From assembly GCA_964470995.1 (NCBI GenBank), contig CAYYEP010000003.1, positions 16,682-80,681 of the forward strand: a stretch of 64,000 nucleotides of DNA, given 5' to 3'. This DNA is from an uncultured Candidatus Saccharibacteria bacterium (GTDB lineage: Bacteria > Patescibacteriota > Minisyncoccia > Minisyncoccales > UBA5738). Below the pieces are notes generated by a model. The model was not told the DNA's origin. It saw only the letters and a program-made list of their open reading frames with translations, and made no database searches. The position numbers and the translations under genes were made by a program. This document shows, piece after piece, positions 1-54,088 of the stretch (positions are counted from its first letter, which is position 1; every line of letters begins with the position of its first letter).

Positions 1-170
1 TTGGGTGGGTTAAAATACACTATTGCAGTAATTGTTTGGCGGTTGTTAATATCGTTTTAAAGCAGTCCAAACTTAAAAATTACCTCAAAAGGCGATTTAT
101 GGGGCACATAGATCGGATTTTAATTCTGCCCATTTTGTTTTGTTAATAATTCTTTGCAGTTAGTAAACCT

Positions 171-2285
171 ATGGAACACAAAATCACCAAAGTACAAAAG
201 CGTGACGGCCGGATCGTTGATTTCGATTTTGCGCGCATTGCCAACGCGATTTTTAAAGCGATCACTGCTACCGGCCAGGGCGACGAAGTAAAGGCTAAAA
301 AGATCGCCGCCGATGCCGAAAAAATTTTCAACCGCCGCTTTAAGAAGAATGAGATCCCCAGTGTGGAACAGATTCAGGACATCATCGAAGAAGTGTTGAT
401 TATGGATGGGCTGGTGGAAACCGCCAAAGCTTATATTCTTTACCGCGAACAGCGCCGCCGCATTCGTGAAACTGCCGTGGCCACCGACGAAGCGGTAGAT
501 AAAGTTGACCAGTATTTGGAAAAACTTGATTGGGAAGTCCAAGAGAACGCCAATATGGCTTTTTCTCTTCAGGGACTTAACCACTACGGCGTGTCCTATA
601 TTGTCAAAAGATATTGGCTGAATAAGATTTATCCCAAAGAAGTTCGCGAAGCTAATGAGTCGGGCGATTTTCATCTTCATAATCTTGATTCGTTGGCTCC
701 CTATTGTTCCGGTTGGGACTTGTACGACTTTTTAAAGAGGGGATTCGGCGGTGTCGCGGGAAAACTTGAATCCAAACCTCCGAAGCATTTTCGTAGCGTA
801 CTTGGCCAGGCGGTAAACTTTATTTACACTTTGTCGGGCGAAGTAGCCGGCGCGGTATCGTTTTCGAATTTTGATACTCTTGTGGCGCCGTTCATCCGAT
901 ACGATAATTTAAGCTATCCCCAGGTCAAACAGGCTATGCAGGAATTCCTGTTTAATATGGCAACGCCAACGCGCGTCGGTTTCCAATGTCCGTTCTCCAA
1001 TGTGACATTGGATCTCACTCCATCGCCGTCGTTTGCCAAGCAGCCGGTCATTATCGGCGGCGAGCCGCAAAACGAAATTTACGGCGATTTCCAGGAGGAA
1101 ATGAATATGTTTAATAAAGCCTTCTACGAAGTGATGCTGGAAGGCGATAAGAATCAGCGTGTGTTTACTTTTCCAATCCCGACGGTGAGTATTACCAAGA
1201 ATTTTGATTGGAACAATCCCAGCCTTGAACCGATGTGGGAAGCGACCGCCAAATACGGCATTAACTACTTTACCAATTATATCAACTCCGATATGAATCC
1301 CGAAGACGTACGGTCGATGTGTTGCCGTCTGCGGCTTGATATGACCGAACTGCATAATCGTGGTGGCGGTTTGTTCGGCGCCGGGGCTCTAACCGGTTCT
1401 ATCGGGGTGGTGACGATCAATATGCCGCGTCTTGGCTATCTGTCTAAAACCAAAAAAGAGTTTTTTGAGCGCTTAAGCCACCTGATGGATCTTGCCAAAG
1501 AAAGTCTTGAGCTGAAGCGCAAGGTCATTGAAAACTATATCGACAAGGGATTATATCCCTATTCGCGCCACTATCTTTCCAACGTCAAAAAAGCGCGCGG
1601 CCAGTATTATGGCAATCATTTTTCCACTATCGGCCTTAGCGGTATGAACGAAATGCTTATGAATTTTCTAGGCGAAAATATTGCCTCCAAAAAGGGGAGG
1701 GTATTCGCTCTCGAGGTAATGAATTTTATGCGCGAACGCATGGTAGAATTCCAGCGTGAAACCGGCAACATTTACAACCTTGAAGCCACCCCCGCGGAAT
1801 CCACTTCTTACCGTCTATGCTTGAAGGATAAGGCTAAATATCCCGACATAATCGCGGCCGGTACCAAGAAAAGCCCGTATTACACCAACTCATCGCAACT
1901 TCCGGTAAATTTCACCGACGACGTGTTCGAGGCTCTCAAATTGCAAGATGAAATCCAGTGCCGTTATAACGGCGGCACGGTTCAGCATTTGTTCCTGGGC
2001 GAGCGGTTGAATGATACTCAAAGCGTCAAGGCTCTGGTGCGCAAAGTATTCGAGAAATTCCGCCTGCCATATATCACGCTTACGCCGACTTTCTCAATCT
2101 GTCCGACGCATGGCTATATTGAGGGCGAGCACTTTACTTGCCCCAAATGCACCATAGAACAGCCCTGTGAAGTTTATACCCGCGTAGTGGGCTATCTGCG
2201 CCCGGTAGGACAGTTTAATCTGGGCAAACAGCAGGAATACAAAGACCGCAAAGAATACAAAGTCAAAAAAGAATCTCTGGCCTAA
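171..2285 (+). CDS. nrdD: anaerobic ribonucleoside-triphosphate reductase (class III RNR)
   Basis: 704 aa. N-terminal ATP-cone (KVQKRDGRIVDFDFARIANAI). C-terminal 4-Cys cluster (CPTHGY...CPKC) and glycyl-radical-type motif (TRVVGYLRP). Confidence 0.9.
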   Translation: MEHKITKVQKRDGRIVDFDFARIANAIFKAITATGQGDEVKAKKIAADAEKIFNRRFKKNEIPSVEQIQDIIEEVLIMDGLVETAKAYILYREQRRRIRETAVATDEAVDKVDQYLEKLDWEVQENANMAFSLQGLNHYGVSYIVKRYWLNKIYPKEVREANESGDFHLHNLDSLAPYCSGWDLYDFLKRGFGGVAGKLESKPPKHFRSVLGQAVNFIYTLSGEVAGAVSFSNFDTLVAPFIRYDNLSYPQVKQAMQEFLFNMATPTRVGFQCPFSNVTLDLTPSPSFAKQPVIIGGEPQNEIYGDFQEEMNMFNKAFYEVMLEGDKNQRVFTFPIPTVSITKNFDWNNPSLEPMWEATAKYGINYFTNYINSDMNPEDVRSMCCRLRLDMTELHNRGGGLFGAGALTGSIGVVTINMPRLGYLSKTKKEFFERLSHLMDLAKESLELKRKVIENYIDKGLYPYSRHYLSNVKKARGQYYGNHFSTIGLSGMNEMLMNFLGENIASKKGRVFALEVMNFMRERMVEFQRETGNIYNLEATPAESTSYRLCLKDKAKYPDIIAAGTKKSPYYTNSSQLPVNFTDDVFEALKLQDEIQCRYNGGTVQHLFLGERLNDTQSVKALVRKVFEKFRLPYITLTPTFSICPTHGYIEGEHFTCPKCTIEQPCEVYTRVVGYLRPVGQFNLGKQQEYKDRKEYKVKKESLA

Positions 2286-2312
2286 TTTTTAGTGAAACGA
2301 TTTTTCAGTGAA

Positions 2313-2336
2313 CCCCGGTATTTGCCGGGGTTTTTC
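2313..2336 (+). terminator. intrinsic terminator after nrdD
   Basis: Hairpin ccccgg-tatttg-ccgggg followed by TTTTT. Confidence 0.6.
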
Positions 2337-2375
2337 GTTGGGTCAAAATAACTGCTCGCTTGGTTATTTGTGTTT

Positions 2376-2430
2376 TGGGGTCGTTCCTCGATTTAATCGT
2401 TGAGGTGTGACCTCGGCAAATTCGTATTTT
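2376..2430. repeat. REP-like hairpin element (family member)
   Basis: gggtcgttcctcg-atttaatcg-ttgaggtgtgacctcggcaaattcgtatttt. Shares GGTCGTTCC...GGTG(C/T)GACC arms and the caaaYtYgtatttt tail with elements at 3801, 5209 and 53558. Confidence 0.7.
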
Positions 2431-2610
2431 ATCCTTATCTTTTCAGTGCTTGGTTGCGGGTGCAAATTTTATCCGGAAATTGATCCCTGACTTGTTTCTC
2501 GGAGCCAGCATTAAACCTAGCGGGATCAGGGTTCTTGAAGGATGATGAGTCTTCCTTGAAAGAAGGGTTTTTTTGTTCAATAATTAAAAATTATCCTACT
2601 AATCCGTAAA

Positions 2611-3741
2611 ATGGCAGACGATGTAAAAAAGGAAATATTCAGTATTGCGTTGCGCGCCGACATCGTCGCGCTTTTGCCGCGCAAGGTGCGCGCCGTTCTA
2701 AACGCTCTTGCCGGTGAACGCAACCTCCTTATCAAGGGCGGGATTGCCCGCTTGAGCCTGATGGCTCTAATCGAAAAGAAAGGTAAACTGGAAAACCCCA
2801 GCCGCCTTGATATCGAAAAGCGGATCGGAGATGTTGACCTGGCCTTCTGGCAATCCGGTTCGGGTCGCGATTTCCGGAGCGAATTGTGCCAAAAATATGC
2901 CGCCATTGCTCAAAAACTTTACGCGGTGGGCGTGGTTTTTGAGCCCAAGAACATCGATATTATCGATCTGGACGGAGGAAAGCCGCCCGTGGAAAAGATC
3001 TTTGATGCCACTGATCTGACTATCAATGAGGTTGCCCTGGGTTGTGAGGGCAATGTCTGGCGGATATATTACACAAGCCACGCTATCAAGCACATCGCCA
3101 CGGGTTGGGGCGTTTTTGTCCGCCCCAAACCGACCAATATCCGGACCGATGCCGGCCGCGTTTTTCCGTCGCCGCTGGGAATGGTGCGTCTGCTCAAATT
3201 CCTTGTTTCGGGCAAGGTTAAAAAGATTTACCTGCCGGTTCATTGGCGCAAGCTTTATTTTGCCGACTATGAGCGCAAGCTCAAAGAAGGGTTGCGCCAG
3301 CCCAATGCTCCGCTGGGTTTGCACTCGCTGGTCCTGATGAAAAATTACTTTGGTAATGACGACCGTCTGCAAAAAAAAGCGATGTTCGCGCTCTATGACC
3401 TTGGGTTCACTACGCTCCTGGATCCGGATCTTTTTATTCGCCAGCAGGAAGATATCTTTTCCCGGGCCAAGATGCGTTTTGAATTAAAAGACTTGGGATT
3501 TGATGATGTTTTTAATCGCTATCTGGAAGAAAAGAACCGCAAGTATCCGCAACGGCCTGCCGGCGCCGAACAATGCATGCATGTTTACGAACAAACCGCC
3601 TGCAATCTTTGCGGCAGGAGGGTTTGTGCTATCGAAGCTTGTAAGAACTGCGGTAAGGGCAAAAGCCGTCCGCCTATGGCCTGCACGGTCTGGATGCGCG
3701 AATGTCGCCTCGAACCTGAAGCTTTTTACGAAATAAAATAA
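2611..3741 (+). CDS. class II nucleotidyltransferase (CCA-adding/poly(A)-polymerase head domain)-like protein with C-terminal Cys-rich zinc ribbon; paralog 1
   Basis: 376 aa. GGIAR...DVDLAF (GG loop plus DxD). DLTINEVAL matches class II NTase motif B (RRDLTINA). SPLGMVRLLKFLV resembles motif D. C-terminus has about 8 Cys (CNLCGRRVCAIEACKNCG...C). Clear paralogy to 3972-5159. Confidence 0.55.
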   Translation: MADDVKKEIFSIALRADIVALLPRKVRAVLNALAGERNLLIKGGIARLSLMALIEKKGKLENPSRLDIEKRIGDVDLAFWQSGSGRDFRSELCQKYAAIAQKLYAVGVVFEPKNIDIIDLDGGKPPVEKIFDATDLTINEVALGCEGNVWRIYYTSHAIKHIATGWGVFVRPKPTNIRTDAGRVFPSPLGMVRLLKFLVSGKVKKIYLPVHWRKLYFADYERKLKEGLRQPNAPLGLHSLVLMKNYFGNDDRLQKKAMFALYDLGFTTLLDPDLFIRQQEDIFSRAKMRFELKDLGFDDVFNRYLEEKNRKYPQRPAGAEQCMHVYEQTACNLCGRRVCAIEACKNCGKGKSRPPMACTVWMRECRLEPEAFYEIK

Positions 3742-3752
3742 ATTTCATTTCT

Positions 3753-3776
3753 AAACCGGGATGTCCGGTTTTTTTA
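3753..3776 (+). terminator. intrinsic terminator
   Basis: aaccggg-atgt-cccggtt followed by a T-run. Confidence 0.55.
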
Positions 3777-3800
3777 TCTTATTTTCACCTGCCGTACGTT

Positions 3801-3862
3801 TGTATTTTAAGGTCGTTCCTATGCGTACTCGCATAGGTGCGACCTTGCCAAACTTGTATTTT
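3801..3862. repeat. REP-like hairpin element
   Basis: tgtattttAAGGTCGttcctatgcgtactcgcataggTGCGACCTTGccaaacttgtatttt. Nested inverted repeats with direct gtatttt flanks. Confidence 0.75.
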
Positions 3863-3971
3863 GGCCCACCTTCATCTCAACGACTATCCTTGACAAAATA
3901 ATCATAATGTGATATAGTAATGACGTTTTCAGTACCTACTAGAAAAAATACGTTAGGAGGGTTGATATCGA

Positions 3972-5159
3972 ATGGAAATCGTTAGGAATGTTAGGGCGGT
4001 AGAGCTGTCGAACGCAACCATTAAGAGCCTGCCGGAGAATGTCAGACTGATTCTGAAAGCCGTTGAGAATAATGGGCAAAAGGTCGCCCTGGTGAAGGGC
4101 GGCAACGCCAGATTCGTACTGATTCACCTGCTGAAGGAGAAGGGTCTCTTCGCCGATGAGCTTAGATACGGTATCGAAAGCTGTGTCAACGATCTGGACA
4201 TCTGCCTGCTTCGAACCGACAGCTGGGAAAAGCAATCCCAGATGCTCAAGGAAGCCGGTGAAGCGATCCAGAAGGCTTTGGCCGCATTCGAAGTGACTTT
4301 GGAACCCAAGGACACAGAGTTTGTCGCCGCCAATAATCTTCCCGACGCGGTCAGAAAGATATTGACCTCGAGGGACCTGACCATCAATGAGGTGGTCCTG
4401 GTCTATGAGAACGGGGGGTGGTTTGTCCACTACACCGCCGAGTGTGCCGAAGATCTGAGCGCCGGTATTGGATTCCTGAATCCCCGCGCCGGGCTGGTCT
4501 GGTATGTGTGCGGCAAGGTTATCCCGTCGCCACTGGGAATCGCCCGGTTGGCCAAGTACCTGGTCAATGGAAGGGTGAATAAGATAGTCTTCCCCGAGTA
4601 CTACAGGCAACTGTATCTCGAGGAGATTGGCCGCAGAGTCGAGGGCAAAGACCTTCCCACGGGAGCGCACAAACTTCCCGAGGGCGGATCGCTGGGGCTT
4701 TATAGCCTGGTGCTGATGAAGCTCTACTGTCAGGGGAACGACAGCCGGCGGCGGGCAATGAGGATACTCAAGGAGCTGGGTCTTACCGACCTGGATGGCC
4801 CCGCCGCCTACATCCGCGAACAGGAGCTTCTGTTCAAGATGTACGGCAAGGACTTCGAGCTTCTCGACCTGACCTGGGACGAGATCATTGCCAAGCAGAA
4901 GCAGAGCAATGAGATGGTCAACAACGGCCGCAAGATCCGCAAGGACGCGCGAGCCGCCTGCGAACATCAAATGGTTCCGCAAACCTGCCCGGGCTGCGGC
5001 AACCGGTGCCAGATCGAGAAATGCACCAAATGTACCCAGGTGAAGTTCAAAGCGCCCCTGCCTTGTGTCGCGGCCCTGTTCGCCGGCAAGACCATGTGGG
5101 ATGCGGGAATGAAGGGCATTTTCTATGCCCCTAATCTGCCCAAGTTGATGGAAGGCTAA
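3972..5159 (+). CDS. class II nucleotidyltransferase-like protein with C-terminal zinc ribbon; paralog 2
   Basis: 395 aa. GGNAR...DLDICLL, SRDLTINEVVL, SPLGIARLAKYLVNG, LGLYSLVLMK. C-terminal CPGCGNRCQIEKCTKCT...C. Collinear with paralog 1. Confidence 0.55.
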   Translation: MEIVRNVRAVELSNATIKSLPENVRLILKAVENNGQKVALVKGGNARFVLIHLLKEKGLFADELRYGIESCVNDLDICLLRTDSWEKQSQMLKEAGEAIQKALAAFEVTLEPKDTEFVAANNLPDAVRKILTSRDLTINEVVLVYENGGWFVHYTAECAEDLSAGIGFLNPRAGLVWYVCGKVIPSPLGIARLAKYLVNGRVNKIVFPEYYRQLYLEEIGRRVEGKDLPTGAHKLPEGGSLGLYSLVLMKLYCQGNDSRRRAMRILKELGLTDLDGPAAYIREQELLFKMYGKDFELLDLTWDEIIAKQKQSNEMVNNGRKIRKDARAACEHQMVPQTCPGCGNRCQIEKCTKCTQVKFKAPLPCVAALFAGKTMWDAGMKGIFYAPNLPKLMEG

Positions 5160-5208
5160 ATCAGTCTATTTCCATCTCTTTTTTGTTTTAGGCCGTTTTT
5201 AGATTTTT

Positions 5209-5263
5209 TTAAAGGTCGTTCCTATGTGTAATCACATAGGTGCGACCTTGACAACTTGCATTT
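5209..5263. repeat. REP-like hairpin element
   Basis: aaAGGTCGttcctatgtgtaatcacataggTGCGACCTTGacaacttgcattt. Near-identical arms to the 3801 copy with a different internal loop. Confidence 0.75.
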
Positions 5264-5514
5264 CTACCTCTAAGGCATTGCTTGACATTTTTCAAGGGTT
5301 TATCAATAATCTATGCCGAGGGTCCAAAATGGCCATATTGATAGGCAGAGCGGTACCAGCTAAGGGACGTCTCGAAAGAGATGTCTTTTATCGGCTTGGT
5401 GAGGAGGGTCCATTCCAACGAATCGGTACTCTGTATTTTTCCATCCGTTATCATTTGAATGGTAGTTGCGGTTCGCCGCCAAAGTTATATTATGAATTAT
5501 TAAACTCTCTCGCT

Positions 5515-6225
5515 ATGAAAATCTGCGCCTTGCAAAAAACGACTTTAATCGACTATCCCGGCCGTGTGGCGGCCACGGTTTTTACCGCGGGTTGTAATTT
5601 TCGTTGCCCCTGGTGCTATTCCAAGGAGTTGGTTCTGCCCGAATTGATCGCGTCCCAGCCGGTTATTTCCGAAGAAGATATCCTCGAATTTTTTGAAGGT
5701 AAAAAGGGTTTGCTTGAAGGCGTAGTCTTGTGCGGCGGCGAGCCTACCTTGCATCCGGACCTGCCACAATTCATCAAAAAGATCAAAGACCTGGGATTTG
5801 AAGTGAAGCTTGACAGCAACGGTTCCAATCCTAAAATGCTCAAGGATCTTATTAATGCCAAGCTCATTGATTACGTTGCTATGGATATTAAGCTTCCCAA
5901 GGAGCGGTATTCGTCATTGTTTGCTGCTCCGATTTCAACCGGGAATATCGAAGAAAGCATAAAGATATTGAAAAATTCCGGCATTGGTTTTGAATTCCGC
6001 ACCACGGTCGCTCCCGGCGTGCATACCACCGATGATCTTGAGAATATGGCTCGTTGGATAGGGGAAGGCGTGCCCGGCCCAAAACCAAAGTACTTCCTGC
6101 AGAATTTCCGTCCTGGCCGCAACATCGATCTGTCATTTGAAACGCGCCGCCCATTTCCGCCTGAATTTTTCAAAGAGGCCGAAATAAAGATTAAACCTTA
6201 TGTTTCCGAAATTGGTATTAGATAG
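5515..6225 (+). CDS. nrdG: anaerobic ribonucleotide reductase activating protein (radical SAM)
   Basis: CNFRCPWC radical-SAM motif 25 aa after the Met at 5515. LCGGEPT glycine-rich SAM motif. The ORF-track start at 5224 reads through the REP hairpin and is unlikely. 5329 is an alternative start. Confidence 0.8.
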   Translation: MKICALQKTTLIDYPGRVAATVFTAGCNFRCPWCYSKELVLPELIASQPVISEEDILEFFEGKKGLLEGVVLCGGEPTLHPDLPQFIKKIKDLGFEVKLDSNGSNPKMLKDLINAKLIDYVAMDIKLPKERYSSLFAAPISTGNIEESIKILKNSGIGFEFRTTVAPGVHTTDDLENMARWIGEGVPGPKPKYFLQNFRPGRNIDLSFETRRPFPPEFFKEAEIKIKPYVSEIGIR

Positions 6226-6236
6226 ATTCGAATTAT

Positions 6237-7754
6237 TTGGGGAGGCGGGTAATGGTTTTGGCAAAAATTTTTTTGAATAACTGCCTGGCATTCCTGGCCG
6301 GGGTGGGGCTGGCTTCGTTGATTAAAATATCCTCGGTTTTGATTTTGGCCGCGGCATTTCTTGCCGCGTTTTTGTTCGCCGCCGGCCTCTTTGTCCGAAA
6401 ACGCCGGGTTTGCGTTGCCGGAATCCTGCTGGCCGGATTTGTTTCGGGTTTTTTGCATTTTGATTTAGCCTGGTTGCGGACGCTCAATAACGATTTGGCT
6501 CGGCTTTCCGGCCAAACAGTTGTTGTTTCGGGCATTGTTGTCAACGATCCGGTATCCAATGGCAATAGCCTGCAGTTGGTCTTTCTTCCCGATGGCGCCA
6601 GCGGTAAGATTCTGGTTTTAACCCGTCCGTATCCGCAATACCAATACGGCGACCGGTTAAAATTTACCGCCAAACTGGAAACGCCGCAAAGCTTCTCGGG
6701 TTTCGATTACCAAAACTATCTTACCAAAGACGGCATTTATTCTATGGTCCGTTATCCGGAGCTTGAATTGATTTCGCCGGATAACGGCAATCCGGTCTAT
6801 GCCGGATTGCTTTGGTTCAAGCATAAGCTTATGAATGGGATAGGACAGGCCTTGCCCGCGCCCCATAATTCGTTGCTTGTTGCCATTCTTTTTGGCGATC
6901 AAAGCGGTCTTTCCGGCTGTGCTGCCAAAGATACGGAAGCCGATCCTGATTGCGCCAAATTAAAAGAAAAGCTCAATATTTCCGGCCTGCGCCACTTGGC
7001 CGCGGTTTCCGGTACCCATATTACCATCATGGCCGGAATTATCGCGCCATTCTTGGTCTGGCTTGGGTTTTGGCGCCAAAAAGCACTTTTGGCCACGCTG
7101 GTTTTTATTTGGTGCTTTATTTTAATGATCGGCCTGCCCGCATCTGCGGTGCGGGCGGGAGTCATGGGTAGTTTAATTATCCTGGCTCAAATTATCGGCC
7201 GTCCCGCGGATTATCTGCGCCTGGTTGCCATCGCCGCCGCGTTTATGGTTGCCCAAAACCCTTTGATTTTGCGTTTTGATATCGGCTTCCAGCTGTCTTT
7301 TTTAGCGGTATTGGGTATGGCTTGTTTTGCCAAACCCATTGGGTTTAAATTGGGAAAATTCGTTAAAAAACCCGAATTCCTGCGTCAGGGTTTGGCGGTA
7401 ACCTTGGCGGCGCAAATCTTTACCTTGCCAGTTCTGGTTTATAATTTTGGCTATGTTTCTCCCTACGCGCCGATCAGCAATATTTTAGTCGAGCCGTTTG
7501 TGCCGTTTATTACGATTTACGGTTTTATTTTGGCGATTGCCGCCGCGTTCAATTTTATCTTGGGATGGCTGTTATTTTTTCCGATGTGGCTGGCGCTTTC
7601 ATATTTGCTTGTTGTTGCCGGCCTTTTTGCGTCTTTGCCTGGAGCCGCGCTGAATTTTAAGGTCGGATTTTTCTGGCTGGCGGTTTCGTATGTTCTTTTG
7701 GCTTTGGTTGCCCGGAAGATTAAAAGAAAAGAGAGGTTGGAATTTTTAAGATAG
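6237..7754 (+). CDS. comEC: ComEC/Rec2-family DNA internalization channel protein (DUF4131 plus competence domain; ends after the competence domain, no room for a C-terminal beta-lactamase domain)
   Basis: Multi-TM protein. N-terminal OB-like periplasmic region (VVVSGIVVNDP...GDRLKFTAKLETP). Competence-domain motif ISGLRHLAAVSGTHITIMAGI. Confidence 0.6.
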   Translation: MGRRVMVLAKIFLNNCLAFLAGVGLASLIKISSVLILAAAFLAAFLFAAGLFVRKRRVCVAGILLAGFVSGFLHFDLAWLRTLNNDLARLSGQTVVVSGIVVNDPVSNGNSLQLVFLPDGASGKILVLTRPYPQYQYGDRLKFTAKLETPQSFSGFDYQNYLTKDGIYSMVRYPELELISPDNGNPVYAGLLWFKHKLMNGIGQALPAPHNSLLVAILFGDQSGLSGCAAKDTEADPDCAKLKEKLNISGLRHLAAVSGTHITIMAGIIAPFLVWLGFWRQKALLATLVFIWCFILMIGLPASAVRAGVMGSLIILAQIIGRPADYLRLVAIAAAFMVAQNPLILRFDIGFQLSFLAVLGMACFAKPIGFKLGKFVKKPEFLRQGLAVTLAAQIFTLPVLVYNFGYVSPYAPISNILVEPFVPFITIYGFILAIAAAFNFILGWLLFFPMWLALSYLLVVAGLFASLPGAALNFKVGFFWLAVSYVLLALVARKIKRKERLEFLR

Positions 7755-7880
7755 AATAACGATTCGCAGGATGATCTTTTTTTGTTATTATCTAAATAGG
7801 ACTTTCTTGTTTGTTTTTTAAAATGGGCCTACGCGAATTTTTGCACCGCGGGTCTAATATAATTTAGGAAGTTCCAAAGA

Positions 7881-9194
7881 ATGGAAGGTCAGGCTTGGAT
7901 AGTCAGTGTTAATATGGGTTACGGGCATCAGCGGACCGCTTATCCGCTCAAGAGCTTCGCGTACAACGATAAAGTTCTTAACGCCAACGATTACGACGGC
8001 ATTCCGGCCCGCGACCGCCAAATCTGGGAAGGAAGCCGCCGTTTTTACGAGGGGATTTCCAAGTTCAAGCGCACTCCGGTTATCGGCGATGCCGCCTTTG
8101 CTTTATACGACAAACTCTTCCAGAAGATATTTGATTTTTATCCGCGCCGGGATTTGTCGCGGGCAACTTTCCTGACTAACCGCAATTACGATCTGATCCA
8201 CAAAGGTTGGGGTAGGGATATCATCACCAAAATGGCTCGCCATCCGTTGCCGCTGGTAACCACCTTTTTCATTCCGGCCTTTATGGCCGAGGAATTCGAT
8301 TATCCCAACGAAATATACCTTATTGTTTGCGATGCCGACGTCAGCCGCCAGTGGGTTGCGCGCGACCCTTTGCGTAGCCGGATTAACTACTGCGCGCCCA
8401 ATTCCCGCGTTTATGAACGATTAAAGCTTTACGGCGTATCTAAAAAACGCCTGTTTTTGACCGGTTATCCATTGCCGGAAGATAATATTTCCACGGGTAA
8501 GGGCAAGGCCTTCTGGGAAATGAACATTGCCAAGCACGATCTTGCCCGGCGCTTGATCAATTTGGATCCGACGGGCGCCTATCTTTCCAAATACCGCGAA
8601 TTTGTTGAAAAAGTTTTAGGCGAATTGCCCCAGTCCGTAAAAAGGCCCCTAACGGTTATGTTTTCCGCGGGTGGCGCCGGCGCGCAGAGCGAGATCGGCA
8701 TAAACCTCGCGCGCCAATTTGCGGGCAAAATTAAAGATGGCCGCATGAGGTTAGTGCTTTCGGTTGGCATAAATCAGGGGCTAAAAGATAAATTTTCCGT
8801 TTTTGTCAATAGCTTGGGGCTTGGAGACTCTCCTTTTATGGAGATTCTTTATGAGAATGACGTGCAGGAATATTTTGGCCGCTTTAACGAAATACTGCGC
8901 CAGACCGATATCTTATGGACCAAACCCAGTGAATTGTCTTTTTATTCGGCACTTGGTTTGCCCGTTATTATCGCGCCGCCGATCGGCTCCCAGGAAAACT
9001 TTAACAAAGGCTGGTTGCTCCGTTCGGGTTTTGGCCTGGAGCAGGGAAGTATCAATTGTATCGACCAATGGTTGTCCGACTGGCTCAACAGCGGTTATTT
9101 GGCCGAAGCGGCTATGGAAGGTTTTGTCGAGGGGGAAAAGTTGGGAACCTACCATATCAGGCGGCTGGTTTCCAACAAGGGCTGCCTGAACTGA
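7881..9194 (+). CDS. glycosyltransferase, MurG/MGDG-synthase-like (GT28-like)
   Basis: The C-terminal DILWTKPSELSFYSALGLPVIIAPPIGSQENFNKGWLL resembles the GT28 C-terminal domain. N-terminal GYGHQR may be the glycine loop. Confidence 0.45.
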   Translation: MEGQAWIVSVNMGYGHQRTAYPLKSFAYNDKVLNANDYDGIPARDRQIWEGSRRFYEGISKFKRTPVIGDAAFALYDKLFQKIFDFYPRRDLSRATFLTNRNYDLIHKGWGRDIITKMARHPLPLVTTFFIPAFMAEEFDYPNEIYLIVCDADVSRQWVARDPLRSRINYCAPNSRVYERLKLYGVSKKRLFLTGYPLPEDNISTGKGKAFWEMNIAKHDLARRLINLDPTGAYLSKYREFVEKVLGELPQSVKRPLTVMFSAGGAGAQSEIGINLARQFAGKIKDGRMRLVLSVGINQGLKDKFSVFVNSLGLGDSPFMEILYENDVQEYFGRFNEILRQTDILWTKPSELSFYSALGLPVIIAPPIGSQENFNKGWLLRSGFGLEQGSINCIDQWLSDWLNSGYLAEAAMEGFVEGEKLGTYHIRRLVSNKGCLN

Positions 9195-16211: not shown

Positions 16212-16213
16212 TG

Positions 16214-16270
16214 TCTGTATTTCAAGGTCGGTCCTTGGTACTCGTATTTTTGCCAAGGTGCGGCCTTGGT
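16214..16270. repeat. REP-like hairpin element
   Basis: ctgtatttcAAGGTCGgtccttggtactcgtatttttgccaaGGTGCGGCCTTGG. Confidence 0.65.
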
Positions 16271-16292
16271 TTTAACTGTTTTTTTTAATCCA

Positions 16293-17118: not shown

Positions 17119-17144
17119 TCTTCTGAATTTGTATCCCTGAAGTG

Positions 17145-17205
17145 TGTATTTTTAAGGTTGCACCCGGCGAAGTACGCCGAGGTGCCACTCTTATCGACTG
17201 TATTT
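17145..17205. repeat. REP-like hairpin element (divergent)
   Basis: gtatttttAAGGTTGCACCcggcgaagtacgccgaGGTGCCACtcttatcgactgtattt. Confidence 0.55.
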
Positions 17206-17363
17206 ACCCCGTTTTTTGAAATTGTGTTAAAATTATGTCCTATATTGTACTAATCTCAATGTGAATAGGACAATTATCTGCTATACTGATATAATTAATT
17301 ATTCTTAGAGGGATACATAATGAATTTTCGGGGCGGAGTGCGTCCCGAAAATCAAATTCGAAT

Positions 17364-18197: not shown

Positions 18198-18266
18198 CTG
18201 TATTCTGTATTTTAAAGGTAGCTCCTCGGCGGGCGTCGAGGAGCTAACTTGATAAGCTGTATTTAG
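18198..18266. repeat. REP-like hairpin element (divergent)
   Basis: ctgtattctgtattttAAAGGTAGCTCCTCGgcgggcgtCGAGGAGCTAacttgataagctgtattt. Confidence 0.5.
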
Positions 18267-18321
18267 ATTTGAGTCCATATTCCAGCGCACATTTTTTAGT
18301 TTTTTGTCAATATTGTTTTGC

Positions 18322-18410: not shown

Positions 18411-18475
18411 GCGTTTTCAAGGTCGTTTCTCGGCACATCGTGTTTTTACCTGGGTGCGGCCTAAATAAACTGCGT
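18411..18475. repeat. REP-like hairpin element
   Basis: gcgttttcAAGGTCGtttctcggcacatcgtgtttttacctgGGTGCGGCCtaaataaactgcgtttc. Confidence 0.55.
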
Positions 18476-18477
18476 TT

Positions 18478-18540
18478 CAAGGTCATTTTTTTGGCAACTT
18501 GATAAAGGGTTGCAAAGCCTGACCTTGGGAAAACTTGAAT
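18478..18540. repeat. REP-like hairpin element (divergent)
   Basis: tcAAGGTCAtttttttggcaacttgataaagggttgcaaagccTGACCTTGGgaaaacttgaat. Confidence 0.45.
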
Positions 18541-18570
18541 TTCCCGATAGAAATAGGCGACTCGAAATCA

Positions 18571-22406: not shown

Positions 22407-22537
22407 TTCTCTCTAAATCGCCTTTCTTGTGGACTGGCGTTACTGGTGGGTTTAACCCTCCGGTATGGCAAAAACCCGCTTAACCGCGGGTTTTTGTTTT
22501 CTTTGTGCGACTGATCCTTCCAACATCGCAAAAAAAG

Positions 22538-22587
22538 TTTGTGCAAGGTCGCACCTTGCACAAATTGTGCAAGGTGCGACCTTGCAA
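22538..22587. repeat. REP doublet (perfect 50-nt palindrome) at the 5' flank of the RAYT gene
   Basis: TTTGTGCAAGGTCGCACCTTGCACAAATTGTGCAAGGTGCGACCTTGCAA. The two arms are exact reverse complements. Confidence 0.85.
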
Positions 22588-22628
22588 TACTTGCCAAAAC
22601 TATTGTCTTTGCTTATTATTGCGATAAT

Positions 22629-23423
22629 ATGCCAAACCTTACTCGTAATTTTGCTATCGGCGATATTTATCATATCTTTAATCGTGGAGTAGAGAAGCGC
22701 GCCGTTTTTATGGATAACTCCGATTACTACCGCTTCGTTTTTTCGCTGTATGAATGTAACGACGAAACTGCGGTTCGGGTTGGCCAGCGTATAATTGAGC
22801 GCCGCCAAAGAAATACCAACAAAGCAAGTTCTGCAAGGTCGCACCTTGCAAGCTTGCAAGGTGCGACCTTGCAGAATTCAGAAGCGCACAAGAGAGAGCT
22901 GTTGGTTGAAGTCGTGGCTTTTACCCTGATGCCTAACCACTATCATCTAATTCTGCGCCAATTGGTTGACGGCGGCATTTCGCTATTTATGAAAAAATTA
23001 GGCAATGCCTATACCGGATATTTTAATGAGCGGCATGAACGTAAAGGGATGGGAGCTCTTTTTCAGGGACGTTTTAAGGCGATACGTATTGCCGATGACC
23101 GGCAATTTTTGCACCTGGCCGAGTATTTGTTTTCAAACCCTGTCGAAATCCTGGAACCGGACTGGAAGCTGGGCGGCGTCCGGGACCCCGCCGCCGCAAT
23201 TGATTTTTTAAATAATTATAAATGGTCAAGCTATTTGGATAGTATCGGTATGAAAAATTTTCCTTCCGTTACCGATCGGGATTTTTTGTGGAAAGTATTC
23301 GCTGGTTCCACGGACGAGCGGAAGGGGAGGTGTCGCGTCAAAGAATTCACCGAAGCCTGGATCAAGAATAAATCAACACTGTTTTCCGGCATTGCTATTG
23401 CTCAAAAAATATCTTTTGATTAG
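22629..23423 (+). CDS. REP-associated tyrosine transposase (RAYT; IS200/IS605-like Y1 HuH transposase, Transposase_17 family)
   Basis: YHIFNRGVEKRAVF N-terminal strand. HuH motif in LMPNHYHLIL. YTGYFNERHERKG and FQGRFKAIRIADD. Catalytic Tyr motif AEYLFSNPVE about 63 aa after HuH. The ORF-track start at 22539 lies inside the REP palindrome, so the Met at 22629 is preferred. Confidence 0.8.
   Translation: MPNLTRNFAIGDIYHIFNRGVEKRAVFMDNSDYYRFVFSLYECNDETAVRVGQRIIERRQRNTNKASSARSHLASLQGATLQNSEAHKRELLVEVVAFTLMPNHYHLILRQLVDGGISLFMKKLGNAYTGYFNERHERKGMGALFQGRFKAIRIADDRQFLHLAEYLFSNPVEILEPDWKLGGVRDPAAAIDFLNNYKWSSYLDSIGMKNFPSVTDRDFLWKVFAGSTDERKGRCRVKEFTEAWIKNKSTLFSGIAIAQKISFD
22831..22874. repeat. REP doublet inserted in-frame inside the RAYT coding sequence
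   Basis: CTGCAAGGTCGCACCTTGCAAGCTTGCAAGGTGCGACCTTGCAG is translated as SSARSHLASLQGATLQNS without breaking the ORF. Confidence 0.8.
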
Positions 23424-46417: not shown

Positions 46418-46448
46418 GAAAGCATAAAATAGGTTGGGCAAGATGCAG

Positions 46449-46498
46449 TTTGTGCAAGGTCGCACCTTGCAAGCTTGCAAGGTGCGACCTTGCACAAA
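46449..46498. repeat. REP doublet (palindrome) inside the polysaccharide operon
   Basis: TTTGTGCAAGGTCGCACCTTGCAAGCTTGCAAGGTGCGACCTTGCACAAA. Lies between the Wzz-like gene and the ligase-like gene. Confidence 0.85.
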
Positions 46499-46515
46499 AG
46501 CTAAATAGCATAGTT

Positions 46516-53538: not shown

Positions 53539-53557
53539 AAAATATTCACCCCGTAAC

Positions 53558-53617
53558 CGTATTTTGAGATCGTACCTCGGCGTAATCGCCGAGGTGCGAT
53601 CTCGGCAAACTCGCATT
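53558..53617. repeat. REP-like hairpin element
   Basis: cgtattttgaGATCGTACCTCGGCGtaatCGCCGAGGTGCGATCtcggcaaactcgcattt, followed by aactgtttttttt. Confidence 0.7.
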
Positions 53618-53644
53618 TAACTGTTTTTTTTGCCCCGACACGCC

Positions 53645-54088
53645 ATGCAATCCGAAAGATTTAAATTGATTCCCGCGGTTTATCTTTTCCTCATAAAAGA
53701 CGGGAAAATTTTGCTTTCGCGCCGGTTTCAGACCGGGTATCGGGACGGCAGCTACAGTCTGCCCGCCGGCCATTTGAACGGCAACGAATCGATGCGGGCC
53801 GCGCTTATTCGCGAGGCCAAGGAAGAGGCGGGGATCGATATCGATCCTCGCGAGCTTGAATTCGCGTTATTGATGCACCGTTCGGCCGAAACCAACGATC
53901 ACGAACGGATGGATATTTTTTTCACCGCCGCGAAGTGGCAAGGCAACATAAGTAATACCGAACCCGACAAATGCGACGATCTGTCATGGTTCGACCTGGA
54001 CCGTTTGCCCGAAAATACGGTTGACTACGTTAAAGTGGCTATCGGCTGCCATTTGAAAGGTGATAAGTATTGCGAATTCGGCTGGTAA
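53645..54088 (+). CDS. NUDIX hydrolase
   Basis: Nudix box GHLNGNESMRAALIREAKEEAGI. Confidence 0.7.
   Translation: MQSERFKLIPAVYLFLIKDGKILLSRRFQTGYRDGSYSLPAGHLNGNESMRAALIREAKEEAGIDIDPRELEFALLMHRSAETNDHERMDIFFTAAKWQGNISNTEPDKCDDLSWFDLDRLPENTVDYVKVAIGCHLKGDKYCEFGW

Follow-up and report, generated by a model that had tools for sequence, protein, structure and literature searches.

What do the two paralogous genes that lie between nrdD and nrdG in an uncultured Candidatus Saccharibacteria bacterium encode, and what kind of site do they occupy? The window, i.e. the whole stretch of DNA analysed here, includes 64,000 nt (GCA_964470995.1, contig CAYYEP010000003.1, positions 16,682-80,681 of the forward strand); all coordinates are counted from its start. 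The two genes are pA (open reading frame [ORF] 2611-3741, + strand, 376 amino acids [aa]) and pB (ORF 3972-5159, + strand, 395 aa), both as given by the ORF list. They form a tandem flanked by nrdD on the left and by nrdG on the right, and comEC follows nrdG. Their products are two divergent types of one protein family, referred to here as family X. Profile and structure comparisons show that X is a remote, hitherto unannotated branch of the class-II nucleotidyltransferases (NTases) that has an intact metal-binding catalytic core, a remodelled nucleotide-selection region and a C-terminal half that is new and binds metal by its predicted ligands. The favoured reading, to which a probability of about 0.55 is given, is that pA and pB are types of a new, fast-diversifying class-II-like NTase branch that occupies a variable cassette site and probably acts on RNA 3′ ends.

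A preliminary description, made from the sequence alone, had taken pA and pB for collinear paralogs that share a series of sequence blocks, including a C-terminal Cys cluster. Both statements hold. The ORFs are as described, the proteins are collinear from end to end (34% identity over 370 aa, E 5e-61, BLASTP), and all shared blocks are found at equivalent positions: KGG(I/N)AR at residues 42-47, D(V/L)D(L/I) at 74-77 and DLTINE at 135-140 in both proteins; PSPLG(M/I)(V/A)RL(L/A)K(F/Y) at 186-197 in pA and 185-196 in pB. The features of the two genes are as follows.

2611-3741, + strand: pA; predicted class-II-like NTase head and neck (residues ~1-200), helical region (200-310), C-terminal Cys/His metal cluster (322-358)
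2734-2751, + strand: KGGIAR of pA
2830-2838, + strand: DVD of pA
2944-2958, + strand: third-carboxylate strand of pA
3013-3030, + strand: DLTINE of pA
3166-3201, + strand: PSPLGMVRLLKF of pA
3574-3684, + strand: putative metal cluster of pA
3972-5159, + strand: pB; paralog with the same predicted architecture as pA, motif-B arginine kept (SRDLTINE)
4095-4112, + strand: KGGNAR of pB
4191-4199, + strand: DLD of pB
4374-4391, + strand: DLTINE of pB
4524-4559, + strand: PSPLGIARLAKY of pB
4959-5066, + strand: putative metal cluster of pB

The relationship of X to class II was examined with hhalign. The class-II reference alignment includes five sequences: Cca and PcnB of Escherichia coli (K-12 genome) and the aligned parts of 1MIV, 4WBZ and 6IBP. 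Two X profiles were used: A1, 21 sequences; A7, 47 sequences, distant members included. Reversed sequences served as control. A7 matched the class-II alignment with a probability of 94.1% (E 1.2e-7, 155 columns; reversed control, P 0.27); the match of A1 was weak but collinear (E 7.6e-4, probability 25%). The paired elements follow the class-II order. The N-terminal helix of X and its strand that ends in KGG pair with the same elements of class II, GGxA[R/K] with GGxVRD, and D74-x-D76 with DxD; [DN]114-[IV]-[ED]116 pairs with the strand bearing the invariant Glu, (R)D135-L-T-I-N-E with RRDFTINA, and P-L-G-M-I-R193-L-L-K196-F with P-L-R-M-L-R-A-V-R-F.

Conservation among the 47 X members follows these elements. 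Motif A is kept almost throughout (G43, 47/47; G44, 41/47; R/K47, 41/47; D74, 43/47; D76, 45/47; E/D116, 39/47), as is the core of motif B (D135, 46/47; T137, 42/47; N139, 41/47). In motif A, D74, D76 and D/E116 are the metal-binding carboxylates, and GGxA[R/K] is a helix cap. The Asp of VRD is replaced by Leu, and the distance from GG to DxD is 30 residues vs 13 in E. coli Cca, an excess of 17 that is near the ~18 aa noticed in the preliminary description. Motif B lacks its first Arg throughout; its second Arg occurs in 32 of the 47 members, pB included, is Thr in pA and is gone from the entire pA clade. At motif D, P186-S187-P188-L-G190 of X is aligned: the Arg position is Gly in 39/47, and neither Glu nor Asp is conserved there. 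In an alternative alignment, D180 and a 7-residue insertion stand in place of EDxxR. The helix that follows motif D is kept (R193-L-x-[KR]196-F; R193, 44/47).

To our knowledge, all characterised class-II enzymes (CCA-adding, CC-adding and A-adding enzymes, poly(A) polymerase [PAP] I) act on RNA 3′ ends and share the EDxxR template. This amino-acid template selects CTP or ATP through Watson-Crick-like contacts, and the R215A substitution of E. coli PAP abolishes A-specificity and randomises nucleotide choice (PMC2532741). In CC-adding as in A-adding enzymes, all five core motifs of class II are retained, EDxxR among them (PMC7014341, PMC2532741).

The AlphaFold2 model of pA, built with the 21-sequence alignment, is confident (pLDDT 82.6, pTM 0.74). 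In a Foldseek search with this model, the top eleven matches were all class II, their E values being non-significant (0.08 or worse). Other NTase families ranked lower in the structure comparison: TENT5, 4.9; MNT, ~4; ANT(2″), 4.0; the MenT-like TglT, 3.6. The closest relatives of X, by structure and by profile, are CCA-adding, CC-adding and A-adding enzymes. The model shows the ~200 N-terminal residues of X as a predicted Pol-beta-type head fold with a class-II neck. The fold of the model and the A7 alignment together support the Pol-beta-type NTase core that the preliminary description had proposed.

The C-terminal half of X in the pA model includes five helices, then a small beta-rich module that bears the Cys/His cluster (pA: C322-x-H324-x6-C331-x2-C334-x4-C339-x4-C344-x2-C347-x10-C358). 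The pattern C-x-H-x6-C-x2-C-x3/4-C-x4-C-x2-C-x10-C is found in both proteins (residues 322-358 of pA, 330-365 of pB). C344 and C347 are invariant in the 47 members, C322 is found in 45 and H324 in 44; the remaining four Cys are lost jointly in the most distant members. The cluster has enough ligands for two metal ions, and its conservation is consistent with two metal sites, one of them core. The C-terminal half has no detectable structural relative and is unlike the helical body and tail with which class-II enzymes hold the tRNA. Matches of the Cys cluster to the AZUL, RING and L32 zinc fingers were weak (E 0.5-2.6) and were not used.

Compared with the PF01743 class-II enzymes (3H37, Thermotoga maritima; 1MIV, Bacillus stearothermophilus; 4WBY and 3WFO, Aquifex aeolicus; PcnB 3AQL, E. 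coli), X falls below every curated hidden Markov model threshold. It carries the 17-residue insertion between GG and DxD, has RRD cut to RD or xD and EDxxR replaced, and has its own helical region and C-H-C6 metal cluster instead of recognisable body and tail domains. Unlike these enzymes, X is rare, lineage-restricted and hypervariable. It also differs from NP_344798.1, the stand-alone 'CCA-adding enzyme head domain' of Streptococcus pneumoniae (PDB 2LA3): this protein of 191 residues lacks a metal-binding tail and has no detectable sequence similarity to X.

Curated libraries do not recognise the family. Pfam and NCBIfam gave nothing significant for pA or pB and no PolyA_pol (PF01743) match even at E≤1, and no Pfam domain was found in any of 53 X members. 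Searches of PDB sequences with single sequences (phmmer) and with the family profile gave no class-II chain and nothing significant. PADLOC gave 0 matches for five X members, and PHROGs gave nothing significant. Homologs are few: 19 and 4 clusters in 5.8 billion proteins, and 63 clusters at E≤1e-3 in 1.84 billion representatives. Their source records are named 'hypothetical protein' and are mostly metagenome-assembled genomes (MAGs) of Pacebacteria/Paceibacterota, Saccharibacteria, Minisyncoccia or 'Patescibacteria group'; four species-level genomes carrying X were found, all of Patescibacteria (candidate phyla radiation [CPR]). Two MAG entries (clusters P0098 and P0099) are labelled 'Candidatus Pacearchaeota archaeon'. 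This label is probably a taxonomic mislabel or the result of mis-binning, because the locus has bacterial ftsA, ftsZ and comEC neighbours. Every plausibly named source puts X in Patescibacteria. No description of family X, or of an nrdD-nrdG nucleotidyltransferase in Patescibacteria, was found in the literature searched. X thus belongs to a known class of fold, but as a family it is new to the libraries and the literature searched.

The genomic position of X was compared among relatives, i.e. metagenomic and MAG loci (L-numbers) of one narrow Patescibacteria lineage. Their gene order is ftsA-ftsZ-nrdD-[variable]-X-[variable]-nrdG-(SWIM)-comEC. The arrangement nrdD-...-X-...-nrdG(-comEC) is seen in L001, L005, L011, L012, L014, L019, L026 and L031-L034; L023 has X-nrdG-comEC, nrdD being beyond the contig end. 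In this lineage X is the only constant occupant of the interval, for which nrdD is the conserved left flank and nrdG the right flank. The variable slots of relatives contain a gene of 239-265 aa, a DUF433+DUF5615 pair, an rve transposase or an AbiEi-AbiEii toxin-antitoxin (TA) pair. A search of the window for remnants of the 239-aa, AbiEi/AbiEii, DUF433/DUF5615, SWIM and rve genes found none. Some relatives carry, after a DUF433+DUF5615 insertion, a second, diverged NrdD C-terminus (residues 659-702, 59% identity), and in one relative the full nrdG is preceded by a repeat of its N-terminal part (residues 1-26, 85% identity). The duplicated gene ends (L019:6211-6387, L034:3145-3321, L032:6139-6216) are the scars expected of cassette entry by recombination that rebuilds the gene ends. 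Distant X members are found elsewhere: beside recX, and between AsnC-type regulators and hrcA-grpE-dnaK.

The 239-265 aa protein is encoded directly upstream of X in several relatives (L005:7171-7890, L001:7146-7895) and is absent from the window. The 239-aa form has a faint, non-significant match to HEPN_LA2681 (E 0.065). If this neighbour were a real HEPN protein, its pairing with an NTase would be of interest.

The flanking proteins and X differ in conservation. Identity of the relatives to the window is 83-93% for NrdD, 61-79% for NrdG, 59-74% for ComEC and only 31-47% for X. L028, whose NrdG is 79% identical to that of the window, carries orthologs of pA and pB that are 73% and 71% identical. 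The NrdG proteins of L023 and L028 are 88% identical, whereas the single X of L023 is only 31-38% identical to either X of L028. The contrast between these loci indicates that X divergence does not simply reflect a fast clock, and that distinct X types are exchanged at a conserved site. Except for L028, a single X copy is found in all 10 distinct relative loci from which both genes could be extracted; L029 is the same contig as L028, and the tandem pair is seen in the window and L028/L029 only. Of the novel paired NTase system that had been suggested for pA and pB, the novel NTase survives; the pairing is not general in the family.

The composition of pB differs from that of its neighbours. 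Its GC content at third codon positions (GC3), 0.732, is the highest of the 45 ORFs taken as window genes (mean 0.518, z 2.6); pA (0.578), nrdD and nrdG are compositionally typical of the window. This outlier suggests a recent lateral arrival of pB, which was probably acquired beside a resident pA. Between pA and its L028 ortholog, the ratio of nonsynonymous to synonymous substitution rates (dN/dS) is ~0.07, with a saturated dS (2.9) that allows no more to be read than that pA is under purifying selection and is not decaying; for pB and its L028 ortholog, dS is not computable. With their ORFs intact, pA and pB both have the look of functional genes.

The flanking genes and the predicted transcription signals are as follows.

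171-2285, + strand: nrdD, anaerobic (class III) ribonucleoside-triphosphate reductase with ATP-cone (NF006126, 1051 bits; PF13597, E 2e-191; PF03477)
2312-2336, + strand: intrinsic-terminator-like hairpin 3′ of nrdD, ACCCCGG..CCGGGGT followed by a T run (sequence reading)
2556-2584, + strand: candidate sigma-70-like promoter of pA, TTGAAA-17-AATAAT, overlapping a hairpin and T run kept in L028 (consensus scan, L028 comparison)
3753-3778, + strand: intrinsic-terminator-like hairpin 3′ of pA (terminator scan, sequence)
3890-3918, + strand: strong predicted sigma-70-like promoter of pB, TTGACA-17-TATAGT, with extended -10 TG (consensus scan)
3955-3960, + strand: Shine-Dalgarno sequence of pB, AGGAGG (sequence reading)
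5282-5310, + strand: predicted sigma-70-like promoter of nrdG, TTGACA-17-AATAAT (consensus scan)
5515-6225, + strand: nrdG, class III ribonucleotide reductase activase, radical SAM (TIGR02495 [NrdG2], E 1e-59, the match beginning at residue 101 of the longer frame)

By these consensus scans, pA, pB and nrdG each have their own predicted promoter, and terminator-like hairpins follow nrdD and pA. The frame of nrdG is open from 5224, i.e. 97 codons ahead of the conserved start (5224-5514). The Met encoded at 5515 is indicated as the start, because the match to the NrdG2 model and the tblastn alignments to the nrdG genes of relatives begin there. With the promoter at 5282-5310, nrdG would have either a leader of ~200 nt, which has no Rfam match, or a longer N-terminus if translation began at the ATG at 5329. 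No obvious Shine-Dalgarno sequence is found ahead of pA; AGGAGG is found ahead of pB. A GC-rich hairpin, a T run and GTTCmATAATTAAAAATTATC lie ~10-60 nt upstream of the start codon of pA at 2611 (window 2537-2600). This arrangement is kept at L028:115-165, with compensatory changes in the stem (CTTCC/GGAAG vs CGCC/GGCG). The hairpin, which overlaps the predicted promoter, could be a terminator, an attenuator or the end of a small upstream transcript.

A hairpin resembling repetitive extragenic palindromic (REP) elements had been described after each of the two genes. It is real and is also found after nrdD. The pattern AGGTCGTTCCT-N14-AGGTGYGACCT has four matches in the window vs 0.00 expected: 2378-2413 (after nrdD), 3810-3845 (after pA), 5213-5248 (after pB) and 53567-53602. 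A covariance model, R1, was built from the four strong copies and run on the window and on the relatives. It finds at least 11 copies in the 64-kb window, all located between ORFs and most starting within ~120 nt of a stop codon.

2366-2432, + strand: REP-like hairpin copy 1 (R1, 81.7 bits)
3798-3864, + strand: REP-like hairpin copy 2 (R1, 88.4 bits)
5201-5266, + strand: REP-like hairpin copy 3 (R1, 81.6 bits)
16213-16286, 17142-17208, 18203-18267, 18468-18545, 22526-22594 (- strand), 22817-22878 (- strand), 46438-46502 (- strand), 53555-53621: further copies

The repeat, of ~65 nt, has the form GTATTTT..AGGTCGyyCCT-[variable stem-loop]-AGGTGCGACCT..CAAAyTyGTATTT. The interrupted stem into which the four strong copies fold has 17 bp, with compensatory changes in 6/17 pairs. 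Like REP elements and bacterial interspersed mosaic elements (BIMEs), it is an imperfect palindrome of ~65 nt with many intergenic copies, mostly just after stop codons, and a stem held by compensation; its sequence is unrelated to that of enterobacterial REPs. Copies are also found directly 3′ of nrdD in the Patescibacteria contigs of relatives. An Rfam search of window positions 1-9000 gave no match to the hairpin; its sole result was a below-threshold PsrR1 match after nrdD, which is merely the terminator stem of this gene. The hairpin is a genome-wide intergenic REP-like repeat and is not locus-specific, and the pA-pB pair can do without it, as L028 shows; its copies may be terminators or mRNA-stabilising elements. 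An nrd-specific operator or leader, of the kind of an NrdR box, was considered and rejected, as R1 finds the element after many unrelated genes. One strong copy (53555-53621) lies between secA and a Nudix-like ORF (53630-54088; 'Nudix' was judged by eye from the translation). The idea that this copy signals a nucleotide-metabolism regulon was dropped, the repeat not being regulon-specific. Nor do pA and pB appear to be cargo of REP-mediated rearrangement, as had been proposed: the hairpin is genome-wide, and L028 keeps the order pA-pB-nrdG without hairpins between the genes.

In the favoured reading, X would be an active Mg2+-dependent enzyme that moves a nucleoside monophosphate from a nucleoside triphosphate onto a hydroxyl. 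The acceptor would most likely be an RNA 3′ end, because this is where the characterised class-II enzymes act. Nucleotide choice would differ from C/A templating, and the metal-binding tail would supply substrate or partner binding. X would be neither a housekeeping CCA enzyme nor a split CC/A pair; it would behave as a variable cassette gene, the types of which replace one another between closely related genomes. Over a role in ribonucleotide reduction, one in the RNA metabolism of conflict or stress is favoured (e.g. RNA or tRNA 3′-end modification, toxin-like or defence-like), because the interval collects TA modules and a transposase and because X types would replace one another there. The MenT/AbiEii (DUF1814) toxins offer a likeness: under conflict or stress, these Pol-beta-type NTases act on the 3′ ends of tRNA and extend or block its acceptor ends (PMC7450476, PMC10435456). 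The likeness is an analogy only, as X is not a member of this group; an AbiEi-AbiEii pair shares the nrdD-nrdG interval with X in several relatives.

Several points weigh against the favoured reading. On present results, the substrate of X may be RNA, a protein or a small molecule. No antitoxin, effector or other partner consistently adjoins X in the loci compared, and PADLOC recognises nothing; the proposed conflict role is drawn from the genomic context of X and from its pattern of evolution. X persists by nrdD and nrdG down to 31% identity, which a functional link with the reductase could explain. The distant members by recX or hrcA-grpE-dnaK support neither the conflict nor the reductase reading. 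Saturation of dS prevents a proper quantification of selection on pA and pB.

A function in class III ribonucleotide reduction is one alternative: X would nucleotidylylate NrdD or NrdG or would sense nucleotides, and its Cys/His cluster would be a metal or redox module. Enzyme-modifying Pol-beta NTases are known, e.g. GlnE, and this function would account for the fixed position of X between both genes, or directly upstream of nrdG, at every locus of the lineage. It is nevertheless unlikely. X has its own predicted promoter and a terminator before it after nrdD, so that co-transcription is not obvious; a specific partner should co-evolve slowly, whereas NrdD is conserved at 83-93% and X only down to 31-44%, with types swapped. 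Distant X members lie away from nrd genes, unrelated mobile modules occupy the same interval, and one narrow lineage was compared, in which synteny may be inherited rather than selected. A housekeeping tRNA nucleotidyltransferase, i.e. pA and pB as the CC-adding and A-adding pair proposed in the preliminary description, or X alone, that makes or repairs the tRNA CCA end in these reduced genomes, would agree with the nearest structural and profile relatives of X. It would also agree with motif scans of the 64-kb window and of 275 kb from related loci, a small share of any genome, which gave no canonical class-II motif set; tRNA scans of the window and of nine related loci, likewise a small genome share, found no tRNA genes. 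This assignment is considered improbable, and the split pair is not upheld. Known CC-adding and A-adding enzymes keep the five motifs (PMC7014341, PMC2532741), while X has EDxxR replaced and RRD reduced to RD (pB) or xD (pA); most relatives have one X copy; X is very rare though billions of proteins were searched; its types, 31-38% identical, swap at 88% NrdG identity, unlike an essential tRNA-maturation enzyme; its C-terminal half is unlike the class-II body and tail domains.

That X is a dead or decaying remnant, an NTase-like scaffold used for binding only or genes drifting to loss, is very improbable. Its very fast divergence, the loss of canonical motifs B and D and the lack of matches in curated libraries would suit a remnant; the three carboxylates, GG, the D-T-N core and R193, near-invariant over the 47 members, do not, nor do the intact ORFs, the low dN/dS of pA (with dS saturated), the predicted promoters and the strong Shine-Dalgarno sequence of pB. 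A bolder form of the favoured reading is put forward tentatively, as rather doubtful in its entirety: X would be an unrecognised RNA 3′-end NTase of CCA/PAP descent in which the template was replaced and a two-metal Cys/His domain gained, a diversifying, cassette-like conflict factor of Patescibacteria that might, for example, tag or block the ends of tRNA or foreign RNA, pA and pB differing in nucleotide or target specificity. Such differing specificities would fit the motif-B arginine kept in pB and lost in pA.

Class-II NTases are the textbook case of template-free, protein-templated polymerisation. X would be a natural branch of this class with the catalytic core but without the EDxxR template and the tRNA-holding domains, the latter being replaced by a new metal module, and would be an example of a class-II scaffold on which the choice of nucleotide and of substrate was built anew. 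The nrdD-nrdG interval is a recombination hot spot between highly conserved genes and could help to find other variable genes in these genomes. In the Patescibacteria, conflict and RNA biology are almost unexplored, and X would offer a first way into the function of one of their fast-evolving 'hypothetical' genes.

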